This document shows positions 4,202-58,552 of a DNA stretch of 64,000 nucleotides, piece by piece (position 1 is the first letter of the stretch; the number at the start of each line of letters is the position of its first letter). A model generated the notes under the pieces. That model made no database searches. It was not told the DNA's origin and saw nothing but the letters and a program-made list of their open reading frames with translations. The position numbers and the translations under genes were made by a program. Source of the DNA: Naegleria gruberi (Eukaryota); assembly GCA_000004985.1 (NCBI GenBank), contig GG738884.1. One strand, written 5' to 3'.

Positions 4202-4275
4202 GCAGCGATAGATCAGTTGGTTAGATCGTAAGCCTAACACGCTTAAGGTCGCGGGTTCAAGCCCCGCTCGCTGTA
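4202..4275 (+). tRNA. tRNA-Val, anticodon AAC
   Basis: Full cloverleaf read from the sequence. Acceptor GCAGCGA/TCGCTGT (G1:U72 wobble), then U8 A9. D-stem GATC/GATC with a 9-nt loop AGTTGGTTA. Anticodon stem TAAGC/GCTTA with loop CTAACAC (anticodon AAC at 4236-4238). Variable loop AGGTC; T-stem GCGGG/CCCGC; T-loop TTCAAGC; discriminator A. A-box-like and B-box-like (GGTTCAAGCCC) internal promoter elements are present. Confidence 0.9.
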
Positions 4276-26075: not shown

Positions 26076-26239
26076 TAAAGATATTTCCCCTAATTTCGAC
26101 ACAATTGACACGGTAAAAGCAGATTATTAATCTTTCCAACTTGAATCAAAATTCAGAATTGAAAAGATTAATACTCAACAACCAAGATTACAATAGAAAA
26201 AGCGATGAATATTTAATTAAAAAATTATTTTTAAAAAAA

Positions 26240-36473: not shown

Positions 36474-37504
36474 TTATTTCTTCTTTTTACTAGATACTGG
36501 CCTAGAGCTTGATTGTTTTTGTTTTTGTTGTGACGTTGTTGCCAATACTTTCTTTCTTCTCTGTTCAAGAATGGTTTCTCTTTGCTTTTCCTTTTCTTCC
36601 TCTTCGTCCAGTTTTGATTTGATTGAGAGAGGAAGCCAATTATCCAATTCTTGAACTAGGAGGGCATCTCGTTTTCGTTCTGCTTCAATTTCTTGCATCT
36701 TTAATCTTTTATAGAACTCATCATTTTCTTCCAGTAAGGTTCTTGATGTTTTGCTAAGAGTTTCACACAATCTGTCTCCACTGTTGTTTTTCAAGTTCAT
36801 GATTGGTGAATTCATTTGAAATCTTATCTAAAGACTTACTTTGGGTGAATATATTTTGGGTGATCCGAGTGAACACTCAGAACAGGAGGGTACATTACAT
36901 TCGATGCAGTGGCCCTACTTAAATCATGTCCAGAAAATACTGATGGCCTCTGATTAATATTATTCTTTTTTCTTCCCATGAATTGTTCCAAAGCTACTTC
37001 AGTTCCTCTTTTTTGTTCAACTCGTTTACCACTCTCATCATAAACCTTCTTTGGTTTTGGAACTCCAAATAAATGGTCTAACTCGGTCTTGTTATTTACA
37101 TGATCTAGTAAACACAATTGAAGATCAAAATTGATCATCATTCTCAATTAAAACCTACCTGGAAACATTGCCTTTCTCTTCACTTTAATTTCCTCAGTTG
37201 TTGGTCCATCAATCATCTTTTTCCTCACACTTTTATATTCTGGTTGTGGTTCACTTAATACTCTTATTTGTGGTTTATATTCAAATTCACTTGTTGGTTC
37301 TTGCAGAGGGTAATGTTTTCGGATACTATCACCATGAGTTATCCTTGGAAATTCACTTGTATAGAATGTTGAAAATCCCTTCCCCAAAGTTTCCGTCGTT
37401 GCTGTTGTATCATTATTCAAATAGGTTCTCTTCTGTCCGTACATCCAATGATTAGGAGAGGATCCGACAATTCCCTCTAATCCACCCGAGAAATTACTAG
37501 TCAT
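36474..37504 (-). CDS. Hypothetical protein (about 305 aa) with a coiled-coil, Lys-rich C-terminus; 3 exons on the minus strand: 37159..37504, 36840..37104, 36474..36780
   Basis: Three consecutive minus-strand ORFs are linked by two short canonical introns: 37105..37158 (GTAGGT..TACTAG, 54 nt, phase 1) and 36781..36839 (GTAAGT..CAACAG, 59 nt, phase 2). Splicing keeps one frame throughout: ...KRKAMFP-D-HVNNKTELDH...KYIHP-N-GDRLCETLSK...SKKKK. Confidence 0.4.
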
Positions 37505-48721: not shown

Positions 48722-48799
48722 TAAACTCTTTTTAATTTTAAGTGCATACAAATCTAGGAGAATTGTTTGTTGTAATTTGAATATTTGAAACTTGTCTTT

Positions 48800-54362: not shown

Positions 54363-54390
54363 TTTTTTTGTAAAATAAATCTAATGTTTC

Positions 54391-55718: not shown

Positions 55719-56600
55719 ATGAATCAATTGGAATCAATCATTGCCGATTACCTCTCCAATCATTGTTCTTCATCTCCGTTGGATGATGATGAATTTTCCA
55801 TTATTAAATTAAAAATTGAAACTCTAAAAAATTCGATAAGCGAAAAGGAATGGAAGGCAATCAGGGAAGATATAAGAGTGGAGGATTTATTTGGTTCAAT
55901 ATATTTGTTAATTTTGAAGGAATTGATGCCATTCCGAGATGGATATTCGCAAGAATTTCGAGATTGCTCACTCTGTCCCGAACGTTACATTAATTTTCAA
56001 ATCAAGCCTTCGTGTTGTACCTCAAAGTGTACTAAAACTACTTGTGAAATAATTAAGTATCTGGTGATGAATGTTTATGAGAGTGAATTATTGGTAGATA
56101 GACAGGCTTCATGTTGGTTTGATGGATATTATGTAAGATCAATGCATTGGTTGGCTCACTTTGGTCAATTATCACTTGTGAGATTTTTGGTGAATGAATG
56201 TGGATTTAAGGCACAAGTCCAATCTGATATTGATTGGGTCTCAGATTGGTCAATTAATCAGGCCTTTATTGAAAAACACTTTGATTTGGTTAGAGAAATG
56301 TGTAAGGGAGATTATTCCTTCATGTTGAGAGATAGGTGTGATCATATTCCAGCTGGAATGTTATATTCTTGTTTTGAAATGATCAAAATGGAAGTAGAAA
56401 ACACTTGGGATTATTGGCTATTTATTGTAGAGGAATGTTTGAGGGGAAAGATTACAGATGAAATATTGGATGAAGCAATGGAGACATGGGATAGAAAACC
56501 GAAAGATTTTCTGAGAGCCAAACAAGATCTTTGTTTGAGGGAAAATCCAATACGATCTCACAAACAACTTTCTGATATCATATTTGAATTTGAACTTTGA
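55719..56600 (+). CDS. Hypothetical Cys-rich protein (293 aa)
   Basis: ATG at 55719, only 56 nt from the divergent start at 55662. No family recognised; possible ankyrin-like helix pair (SMHWLAHFGQLSLVRFLVNECG). Confidence 0.45.
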   Translation: MNQLESIIADYLSNHCSSSPLDDDEFSIIKLKIETLKNSISEKEWKAIREDIRVEDLFGSIYLLILKELMPFRDGYSQEFRDCSLCPERYINFQIKPSCCTSKCTKTTCEIIKYLVMNVYESELLVDRQASCWFDGYYVRSMHWLAHFGQLSLVRFLVNECGFKAQVQSDIDWVSDWSINQAFIEKHFDLVREMCKGDYSFMLRDRCDHIPAGMLYSCFEMIKMEVENTWDYWLFIVEECLRGKITDEILDEAMETWDRKPKDFLRAKQDLCLRENPIRSHKQLSDIIFEFEL

Positions 56601-56864
56601 TTCAATACAATCGAATAGCTCAATCATGAAAATGAATAACCAAAACTAAACTGTACAATTCTAACAATCTGATTCCAATTCATCTCTTAAACGTGTAACA
56701 TCATCACCTCTACAAGCAGCTCTCGCTTTAAATCTCATTTCTAATGAGTGTTACCCTTTTCATGGCAGATTACAAATTTCAAACTTTAAATTTACGCTTC
56801 AATTTACAAAAGCTAAATTTAAACCAGAAAACTCAAACTTTCAAAATTCAACAAAACAAAAAAA

Positions 56865-58552
56865 ATGTTCATCTCATCTCTGATAGAAAACGTGAGTCAA
56901 GGAGGAGGTATTGTCAGTTCCTCGGAGAATGTCACTCTATTCTCATCATCTTTTATAATTTTGATGGGTGTTGTGGGTTATGTCATGTATTTTCTGAAGG
57001 ATACTTTGGAGGAATTTATTAGAAGGTTATTCTTTTTCATGTTGGATTTGTCGGATGCTGATCAGGAGTTTGTTTGGTTCTTTACCTTCTTTTCATTCCA
57101 TCCCTATACGAATCATGGTTCTTCACATATTAAACCATATCAAAAGAAGGCCAATAAGGTGAATGATTATGATGATGATCCACTTGAATATGATGGTTTT
57201 GATTTGGGAAAGGATGAGGAATTTAAAAAGACCAAGTTTGTTCCTGCACCTGGCTATCATGTAATTTACATTGAGGGAAAGCCATTATTGATTAATATGA
57301 TTAGTACCATGCCAACTAATGGAAATATTATGAAAGCTAAGGAAAATGTGGAAATTTACAAGCCAAAGTATGATTTTATTGATGCCATTTTGAGAATGAT
57401 TGTCCCATGCACTGATGACAATAATTGTCCAGATCCATTGACTATGGCCAAGAGAGCTGGTTTGAACACTTCAAGTTTCCTCTCACAAAGATATGATGAG
57501 AATGGAAAGGTCATTGCTAAAACTCAAAAGATTTCTTCCAGTAATTATTTCAAGGAATTGATGGCCAATTGCTATTATATCAATACTCTTTATATGAAAT
57601 CCAAGACAACAATTTATACACAAAATTATGGTAGATGGGCTGCTTCATGTGTTAAACATAAGAGAGATAAGAATTCTGTCATTTTGGATAATGGTGTCTG
57701 GGAGAGTCTTTACACGGATGTTGAACAATTCTTGAATAGCAGAGATTGGTATTTCGATCAAGGTATTCCATACAGAAGAGGTTATTTATTATATGTAAGT
57801 TTTTTTAAATTATTGGAGGATTTAATTTTTAACACAATATCTATCTCACTAAACTTTCTATATTCATGAATTTTCAATCAATCAAATAACAACAGGGACC
57901 ACCAGGTACAGGTAAATCAAGTACTATTGGATCTATTGCAGCAGCTTTCAATATGAATATTTGTGTTGTCAATTTGGCTTCTAAGGAATTGAGTGATGAA
58001 GACCTTAATGCAATGTTCAGTAGTGCTCCATTGGATGCCTTGATTGTTCTTGAAGATATTGATTCTTCCTTCATGAATTCTACTGTTGAGGAGAAGAAAC
58101 CTTCCAAGAAGGAAGATGGAGAAGAAAAGGAAGATGAAGAGCCATCAGAAATCAGTAATGTCATTCAAACCAAATCTCAAGTTACTTTCAGTGGTATTTT
58201 GAATGCCATTGATGGTATTGCTGCTTAAGAATCAAGAATGATTTTCATGACAACTAATTACAAGGATAAGCTTCCACCTGCACTTATTAGAAATGGTAGA
58301 ATTGACAAGAAGATTTTCATTGGATATGCCACAGAACATCAAGTCAAGGCCTATGTTAAAAAGTTCTACGAAAAGGATAATCTTTCAGAGGAGGAATTCT
58401 CAACTTTAATTGAACAATTCTGGAATAAGATCAAGAACATGTCCATCTGTATGGCTCAATTGCAAGGTTTCTTATTACTCTATAGACATTCTCTTAAGGA
58501 TCTCGTCAATGCTGCTGATGAATTTGAAAAATTCACCAAAGATGAAATTTAA
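56865..58552 (+). CDS. BCS1-like mitochondrial AAA ATPase, 2 exons (56865..57794, 57896..58552), interrupted by an in-frame TAA at 58226..58228; possible pseudogene
   Basis: N-terminal TM plus BCS1_N-like region (KTKFVPAPGYHVIYIEGKPLL...WYFDQGIPYRRGYLLY). The AAA core after the intron has Walker A GPPGTGKSS and ...ALIVLEDIDSSF... then [10 protein letters not shown][TAA][34 protein letters not shown] (sensor-1 TTN, Arg finger). Intron 57795..57895 (GTAAGT..AACAG, 101 nt). Both sides of the TAA share one frame and align colinearly with BCS1 (GVAS-S/T-E..I.FMTTN). Confidence 0.6.

Follow-up and report, generated by a model that had tools for sequence, protein, structure and literature searches.

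The window (the whole 64,000-nt stretch of Naegleria gruberi NEG-M contig GG738884.1 that was analysed) is gene-dense, with 34% GC and 32 ORFs of at least 150 codons in the standard code. One of its genes, annotated as NAEGRDRAFT_70508 (XP_002674410.1, D2VNI1_NAEGR; 515 aa, labelled "predicted protein"), specifies a BCS1-like ATPase and has a TAA codon in the middle of its second exon. By exact look-up, neighbouring ORFs are NAEGRDRAFT_80641, _70501 and _70509, which belong to a 363-kb scaffold. The features of the gene are collected in Table 1.

Table 1. Features of the BCS1-like gene NAEGRDRAFT_70508, in window coordinates
Feature	Position	Strand	Remarks
Exon 1	56865..57794	+	310 codons, ORF; phase-0 junction with exon 2
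True intron	57795..57895	+	101 nt, GTAAGT...AACAG
Exon 2	57896..58552	+	begins GGA CCA CCA GGT ACA GGT AAA = GPPGTGK
Exon 2, part 5' of the stop	57896..58225	+	Walker A, Walker B, acidic insertion, then helix
Walker A, GPPGTGKSS	57896..57922	+	intact
Walker B, ALIVLEDID	58037..58063	+	intact
Annotated 39-nt "intron" (probable artefact)	58191..58229	+	GTGGTA...CTTAAG, GTGGTATTTTGAATGCCATTGATGGTATTGCTGCTTAAG
In-frame TAA, codon 421	58226..58228	+	between Walker B and sensor-1; alignment column 456
Exon 2, part 3' of the stop	58229..58552	+	open, conserved
Sensor-1, FMTTN	58244..58258	+	intact, 3' of the TAA
Arg residues R132/R135 of LIRNGRID	58289..58300	+	intact, 3' of the TAA
Natural TAA terminator	58550..58552	+	ends exon 2

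Structure of the gene and its product

The product of exon 1, which is identical to the N-terminus of the public protein (P0183), comprises an N-terminal transmembrane segment (the hydrophobic stretch FSSSFIILMGVVGYVMYFL, lying ahead of BCS1_N) and BCS1_N with a lineage-specific insertion, and runs to ...IPYRRGYLLY. Removal of the 101-nt intron joins RGYLLY to GPPGTGKSS exactly as in BCS1; the junction is in phase 0 and the intron is of the form GTAAGT...ACAG, in keeping with the description of the upstream exon and intron as clean in a first-pass annotation of this DNA. The same annotation had drawn attention to the single in-frame TAA at 58226-58228, flanked by the ORF pieces 57953..58228 and 58238..58552. 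Both pieces are there as described and the TAA is in frame with exon 2, the surrounding sequence reading AAT GCC ATT GAT GGT ATT GCT GCT TAA GAA TCA AGA ATG ATT TTC ATG ACA ACT AAT.

Spliced and read through, the gene specifies 527 residues (528 codon positions when the TAA is included) and is otherwise open. The BCS1_N domain is recognized by PF08740 at residues 36-164 (36.8 bits against a cut-off of 28.1), the AAA core by PF00004 (67 bits, above cut-off) and the BCS1-type lid, AAA_lid_BCS1, by PF25426 at residues 458-518, which is 3' of the TAA (36.1 bits against a cut-off of 27). The read-through product matches mouse BCS1 with E=3e-56: GPPGTGKSS, IVLEDID, FMTTN and LIRNGRID all align with their mouse counterparts and the TAA aligns with the Thr of DGVAS-T-EARIVFMTTNY. 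Pfam and the mouse alignment agree with the earlier statement that both Walker motifs, sensor-1 and the Arg finger are intact. NAEGRDRAFT_70508 encodes every tested BCS1-type AAA ATPase domain, but its reading frame is interrupted.

The annotated 39-nt intron

The 515-aa public protein is reproduced exactly when 58191..58229 is removed together with the real intron. The interval that the public gene model excises begins 35 nt 5' of the TAA and ends one base past it; its removal deletes 13-14 residues, including the LNxxDG...E block, and creates a Lys codon. The public model therefore amounts to the proposal that 58191..58229 is a real intron, or a cryptic one that bypasses the stop ("intronization"), with the 515-aa protein as its product. 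The ends of the interval are indeed GT..AG, the frame is preserved and Naegleria introns as short as 37-46 nt exist; its length places it at the extreme lower edge of what was observed (37, 40 and 46 nt). Its donor is a poor one. An assumption-free search for the GT..AG intervals needed to join coding stretches in the window yielded six convincing introns (of 40, 46, 54, 85, 101 and 121 nt). Every one of them has a GTA[AGT]GT donor, a window consensus that the donor of the 101-nt intron of this gene shares; the introns of orthologues have the donors GTTAGT (37 nt) and GTAAGT (55 nt). The annotated donor, GTGGTA, is without the +5 G and +6 T that are present in eight of eight confirmed introns. 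Moreover, 59 frame-preserving, stop-free GT..AG pairs span the TAA, so that a predictor can always draw one.

What the excision removes also argues against it. Orthologues without an intron here can be aligned with the 39 nt codon by codon and, bar the stop, differ from them only synonymously; within the deleted block, five columns (L, N, D, G and E) are invariant in 16 references ranging from planctomycetes to animals. A family HMM built without the window gene assigns 661.6 bits to the Gln-restored protein, 602.4 to the annotated protein and 497.1 to the truncated one; the deletion costs 59 bits. (The generic Pfam AAA model, at 65.8 versus 67.9 bits, does not discriminate for the annotated intron.) The 39-nt intron is very probably a gene-prediction artefact, and real or cryptic splicing at these sites is highly improbable; were it to occur as a cryptic event, the intronization of coding sequence would have been caught in the act. 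A 15-nt micro-intron, GTATTGCTGCTTAAG, was considered separately and rejected: introns of the sizes observed are far longer, and its removal would delete the conserved DG.

The consequence is in the first place curatorial, and the correction of the reference protein model is the main value of the analysis. XP_002674410.1/D2VNI1_NAEGR is probably a fiction, and phylogeny, structure prediction and mitochondrial proteome inventories that draw on it would inherit the error.

The ancestral codon and the relatives of the gene

The stop had been noted in the first-pass annotation as falling exactly where BCS1 homologues have Ser or Thr, and a change of TCA to TAA had been proposed. The former observation is valid for canonical BCS1 proteins, which have Ser, Thr or Ala at this position, but not for the closest relatives of the window gene, which have Gln. 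The best homologue is N. lovaniensis C9374_008885 (P0001/L003; 60% identity) and a closer orthologue, with ~73-75% nucleotide identity, is found on a JGI metagenome contig (L002). Each has the stretch DGIAA-Q-E, its Gln being written CAA in N. lovaniensis and CAG in the metagenome contig; the comparison with orthologues that had been suggested accordingly returns a sense codon at the homologous position in each of the two. The same residue stands at the stop position in nine of the ten heterolobosean relatives that were compared, namely these two and seven of the eight others (from Naegleria, Willaertia and Logan/ENA contigs), and two Logan-derived heterolobosean members have Ser or Gly there. 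A Gln codon in the orthologues and relatives implies that the lesion is one C-to-T transition, CAA to TAA, which displaces the path from TCA; the presumptive ancestral codon at 58226-58228 is Gln (CAA).

No flanking gene is shared with N. lovaniensis, and orthology therefore rests on similarity (60% as against 44% or less) and on an NJ tree. In that tree, which carries no support values, the window gene, its metagenome orthologue and N. lovaniensis 008885 form one group. The group sits within a clade that is exclusively heterolobosean and that holds at least three Naegleria subfamilies; the BCS1 proteins of animals, fungi and amoebozoans are grouped apart from it (both placements without bootstrap). 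The number of BCS1-like paralogues in the genome, which the first-pass annotation had wished to see counted, is to that extent answered, as a minimum number of subfamilies. No N. fowleri member of the window gene's subfamily was found among the top matches. On its placement in the tree, the window gene is a lineage-specific paralogue and does not group with canonical BCS1, the Rieske translocase.

Stop codons across the window

How unusual such a codon is can be judged from the stops of the window at large. In a coding-potential survey, every stop in the window was scored over the 50 stop-free codons to either side of it. With 0.77/0.48, the TAA at 58226 stands out, as compared with a coding mean of 0.35 (sd 0.14), as a clear outlier; it is the only stop in the window with strongly coding, stop-free sequence on both sides. 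One other candidate, an in-frame stop on the minus strand at 37150, turned out to lie in an ordinary 54-nt in-frame intron (GTAGGT...CTAG), and other same-frame ORF pairs that might have been interrupted genes are antisense or non-coding by their coding scores. No frameshifted genes were found elsewhere in the 64 kb, adjacent ORFs each having an ATG of their own and being separate genes. The TAA at 58226 is an isolated lesion among ~35 genes; it is neither a feature of the genetic code nor a sign of poor assembly. A code variant in which TAA specifies Gln can be set aside, given one case in ~35 genes and the use of TAA as terminator by 24 of 29 ORFs that reach 200 codons or more. The window contains a single tRNA, Val-AAC, and none of a suppressor-like kind.

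The survey of terminators brought a separate feature to light. An immediate second in-frame stop follows 7 of 26 genuine terminators, as against a frequency of 3.8% at codons +2 to +12 (p=4e-5). These tandem stops are mostly TAATAAA and may overlap a poly(A)-type signal.

Age of the lesion and constraint on the gene

An ENA metagenome contig from a sister strain (L001) is 97.7% identical to window positions 55807..58212. It ends 14 nt short of the TAA, so that the stop site itself lies outside its coverage, but it is informative about the gene up to that point. In the exons, 6 of 1247 nt differ (0.5%), four of these differences being synonymous and two non-synonymous, while divergence reaches ~9% in the intergenic spacer and ~25% in the 101-nt intron. 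The part of exon 2 that lies 5' of the stop has 317 nt in common with the contig and differs from it once, synonymously. Up to the divergence of the strains, the gene was evidently under purifying selection.

On the far side of the stop, constraint was gauged by a three-taxon comparison of the window gene with its metagenome orthologue, N. lovaniensis serving as outgroup. In the 106 codons that follow the TAA, there are 9 amino-acid changes specific to the window gene and 11 specific to the metagenome orthologue, with no excess in the former. (5' of the stop, it is the window lineage that has evolved faster, with 49 changes versus 22, p=0.002; the N-terminal domain accounts for most of them.) The sequence 3' of the TAA contains neither another stop nor an indel, and the three-taxon comparison detects no measurable relaxation of constraint there. 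The absence of downstream decay, together with the low divergence of the exons, implies that any inactivation would have to be very recent; on these comparisons the lesion is very recent, allelic, or an error of base calling.

The last of these readings is that a sequencing, consensus or cloning error entered the 2010 Sanger assembly, that the genome has CAA and that the gene is intact and functional. It would account for a gene that is otherwise intact and constrained, has no second lesion and needs one base change for its conserved Gln to be restored, and an intact gene carrying a sequencing error would be just as much expected to be free of downstream decay. Substitution errors in a multi-fold consensus are rare, however; moreover, the TAA lies outside any homopolymer or low-complexity run, and the remainder of the 64 kb contains no other interrupted gene or frameshift. 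An error is on balance unlikely, although it is the main rival reading and deserves to be taken seriously.

Searches for another copy of the site did not yield one. Scans of metagenome DNA produced nothing, or distant BCS1 genes only, and no near-identical sequence spanning the stop. With exon 2 as query, no fragment close to identity was recovered. Four sequences were looked up for exact matches (the two ORF fragments, the truncated product of 420 aa and the product with Gln restored), and none had one. For NAEGRDRAFT_70509, the next gene downstream, the cluster contains no copy from the sister strain.

Readthrough and other escapes from termination

The stop could in principle be read. Near-cognate decoding of UAA typically inserts Gln, and functional readthrough, in which a near-cognate tRNA-Gln decodes the UAA and restores both the Gln and the full-length ATPase, is favoured by the coincidence of the stop with a conserved Gln. 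The ~106-108 downstream codons are perfectly preserved, as readthrough would have it, and the excess of tandem stops (7 of 26) could be a hint that leakage at termination has consequences; if readthrough is true, that excess of back-up stops would reflect generally leaky UAA termination. The particulars of the site point the other way. The stop is unconserved, its place being taken by CAA and CAG in the orthologues. UAA is generally the least leaky stop and a +4 G is not a leaky context; here the context is UAA-G, without a C at +4, and the same TAA-G is found at 4 of 29 long-ORF ends, at least one of them a splice donor. Folding of the 120 nt that follow is not superior to that of shuffled sequence (z=+0.65). 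No other in-frame stop was found in ~35 genes, in which TAA is the usual terminator (24 of 29 ORFs). A literature search turned up no report of readthrough or of a code deviation in Naegleria, and no paper was found that mentions the identifiers of NAEGRDRAFT_70508. Readthrough had been one of the options listed in the first-pass annotation; nothing specific favours it, since the stop is not conserved, its context is unremarkable, no structure follows it and no second case exists in the window, and we regard it as most improbable. That the gene should be functional despite its UAA by one means or another, be it useful readthrough by tRNA-Gln or a newly recruited 39-nt cryptic intron, is very unlikely.

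Two further escapes were considered and rejected. Termination followed by reinitiation at the ATG at 58238, three codons past the stop, is rejected on general grounds only: reinitiation after an ORF of 420 codons is inefficient without special signals. RNA editing would have to restore CAA by U-to-C editing of a nuclear mRNA, which is not known as an activity of Naegleria.

A candidate null allele

The explanation that we consider probable, if by no means secure, is a real and very recent C-to-T nonsense mutation which has made of NAEGRDRAFT_70508 a null allele, or a nascent pseudogene, of a redundant paralogue. The options originally listed (nonsense pseudogenization, polymorphism or error, readthrough) still include the most likely answers. 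The T at 58226 would then truly be in the genome, and the proposed course of events is as follows. CAA would have changed to TAA in one of at least three lineage-specific Naegleria BCS1-like paralogues. Translation would end after ...NAIDGIAA, yielding a 420-residue protein that would keep the membrane anchor, BCS1_N and Walker A/B and would be without the sensor-1 Asn strand, both arginines of LIRNGRID and the lid. (Of the 131 positions in the Pfam AAA model, the truncated product covers 1-74 only.) AAA+ ATPases work as rings, and a protein without sensor-1, arginine fingers and lid cannot hydrolyse ATP in trans or assemble normally. The truncated product would be inactive, and it is from this predicted loss of ring ATP hydrolysis that the allele is taken to be a null.

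A null allele may have come to stand in a reference assembly in either of two ways: as one haplotype of a heterozygous diploid that was captured in the consensus, or as a nascent pseudogene that is fixed in the laboratory strain NEG-M. Paralogues would make the loss tolerable in both cases. Naegleria is described as being for the most part a heterozygous diploid that has a large accessory genome (PMC9928731), and a consensus assembly of a heterozygous diploid can capture one null haplotype. Elsewhere in the family, the Willaertia magna member (P0012/L014) is clearly decayed: a 1-nt deletion immediately 3' of the homologous Gln codon shifts its frame, and ~60 codons of its lid are gone. This decay suggests that members of the family have been lost repeatedly and that a null allele would be tolerable. 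As to what marks a pseudogene, the window gene has a disabling lesion, and relaxed constraint or further lesions are absent.

As biology, the finding is ordinary. Birth-and-death turnover within an expansion of BCS1-like ATPases that is specific to Heterolobosea is what the locus documents, and a T that proved both real and heterozygous would serve as a simple marker for allelic loss of function in a long-cultured laboratory strain. A new mechanistic question would arise only if readthrough or cryptic splicing were true.

Comparison with known systems

Several known situations resemble this one in part. The annotated interval is like the pseudo-introns that predictors draw around stops and frameshifts, in its poor donor and in the loss of conserved coding sequence that it entails. 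Ciliates in which TAA specifies Gln offer a formal parallel, in that the very same column is occupied by TAA in a BCS1 contig of ciliate code (L008). In-frame TAAs are frequent in that contig, however, whereas the window has one in ~35 genes and uses TAA as its main terminator. From programmed readthrough the window gene differs in having an unconserved stop, no leaky context and no downstream structure. With nascent unitary pseudogenes and segregating loss-of-function alleles it shares a single nonsense change, an intact remainder, the existence of paralogues and a decayed relative (the Willaertia gene); it differs from nascent pseudogenes in that no downstream relaxation is measurable.

BCS1 itself is a mitochondrial AAA ATPase chaperone by which the Rieske Fe-S protein, already folded, is translocated across the inner membrane. 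The window gene has the same architecture as the mitochondrial protein (PDB 6UKO, 6SH3), with its N-terminal transmembrane segment, BCS1_N, AAA core and BCS1-type lid. It is set apart from mitochondrial BCS1 by its place in a separate heterolobosean clade (in the NJ tree, without support values), by two insertions (one of ~80 residues within the N-terminal domain, the other acidic and within the AAA core), by the Gln that its family has where canonical BCS1 has Ser, Thr or Ala and, finally, by the interruption of its reading frame at precisely that codon.

Divergence of the gene upstream of the stop

When the N. gruberi exon 1 (56865..57794 of the window) is compared with its orthologues from a metagenome (L002) and from N. 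lovaniensis (L003), the N. gruberi lineage is seen to have accumulated 49 unique amino-acid changes upstream of the TAA, about twice the 22 of the L002 lineage (p=0.002), and most of them lie in the N-terminal BCS1_N region. Since the gene of the sister strain (L001) is near-identical, this comparison of sequences suggests that most of the acceleration is older than the TAA.

The N. gruberi, L002 and N. lovaniensis genes each carry a single intron close to Walker A, and no two of them share its position, a pattern that suggests either sliding of the intron or its independent loss and gain within a stretch of ~45 nt. An acidic low-complexity insertion in the AAA core (KKPSKKEDGEEKEDEEPSEIS) also varies in length and composition between orthologues, the N. 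lovaniensis form being longer and Asn/Ser-rich.

Coordinates of features in the window and in homologous loci
Feature	Location	Description
N. gruberi intron	window 57795..57895	101 nt, phase 0; directly after RGYLLY
L002 intron	L002 1872..1908	37 nt; directly after GPPGTGK
N. lovaniensis intron	L003 10942..10996	55 nt; within Arg codon of PYRR
Acidic insertion	window 58086..58150	between Walker B and LNAIDG helix
Willaertia magna family member	L014 3001..4400	JBEGDK010000137.1; annotated protein ABK040_003604
Metagenome BCS1 gene	L008 1060..1107	Ga0078894_10121922
Short spacers, co-oriented genes	window 54381..54390; 26076..26116; 48722..48775	
tRNA-Val (AAC)	window 4202..4275	sole tRNA gene in window

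Terminators in the window

Window-wide, a second in-frame stop directly follows 7 of 26 genuine terminators, whereas over codons +2 to +12 the frequency of stops is 3.8% (p=4e-5). The tandem is TAA TAA in five cases, TAA TAG in one and TAA TGA in one. The excess may reflect selection for back-up stops or, since TAATAA is extended to TAATAAA in four of its five occurrences, overlap with an AATAAA-like poly(A) signal. Separately, some co-oriented genes have extremely short spacers: 10-55 nt separate a stop from the ORF that follows, whose ATG lies only a few codons beyond.

Lesions and stops at or near the same site in other homologues

The Willaertia magna protein ends only 3 residues past the Gln homologous to the N. 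gruberi stop, because 1 nt is deleted immediately 3' of that codon (CAG followed by AATCTAGA, where CAG GAA TCT AGA is expected). The gene also lacks ~60 lid codons and, judged by its sequence, is a decayed member of the BCS1-like family. Its lesion lies 1-3 nt from the position of the N. gruberi stop; as it is one of ~12 inspected homologues, this closeness is probably a coincidence. The metagenome BCS1 gene L008, which is unrelated to the window, has a TAA in the same Gln column; more in-frame TAAs lie close by, and its code looks like the ciliate type, in which TAA specifies Gln.
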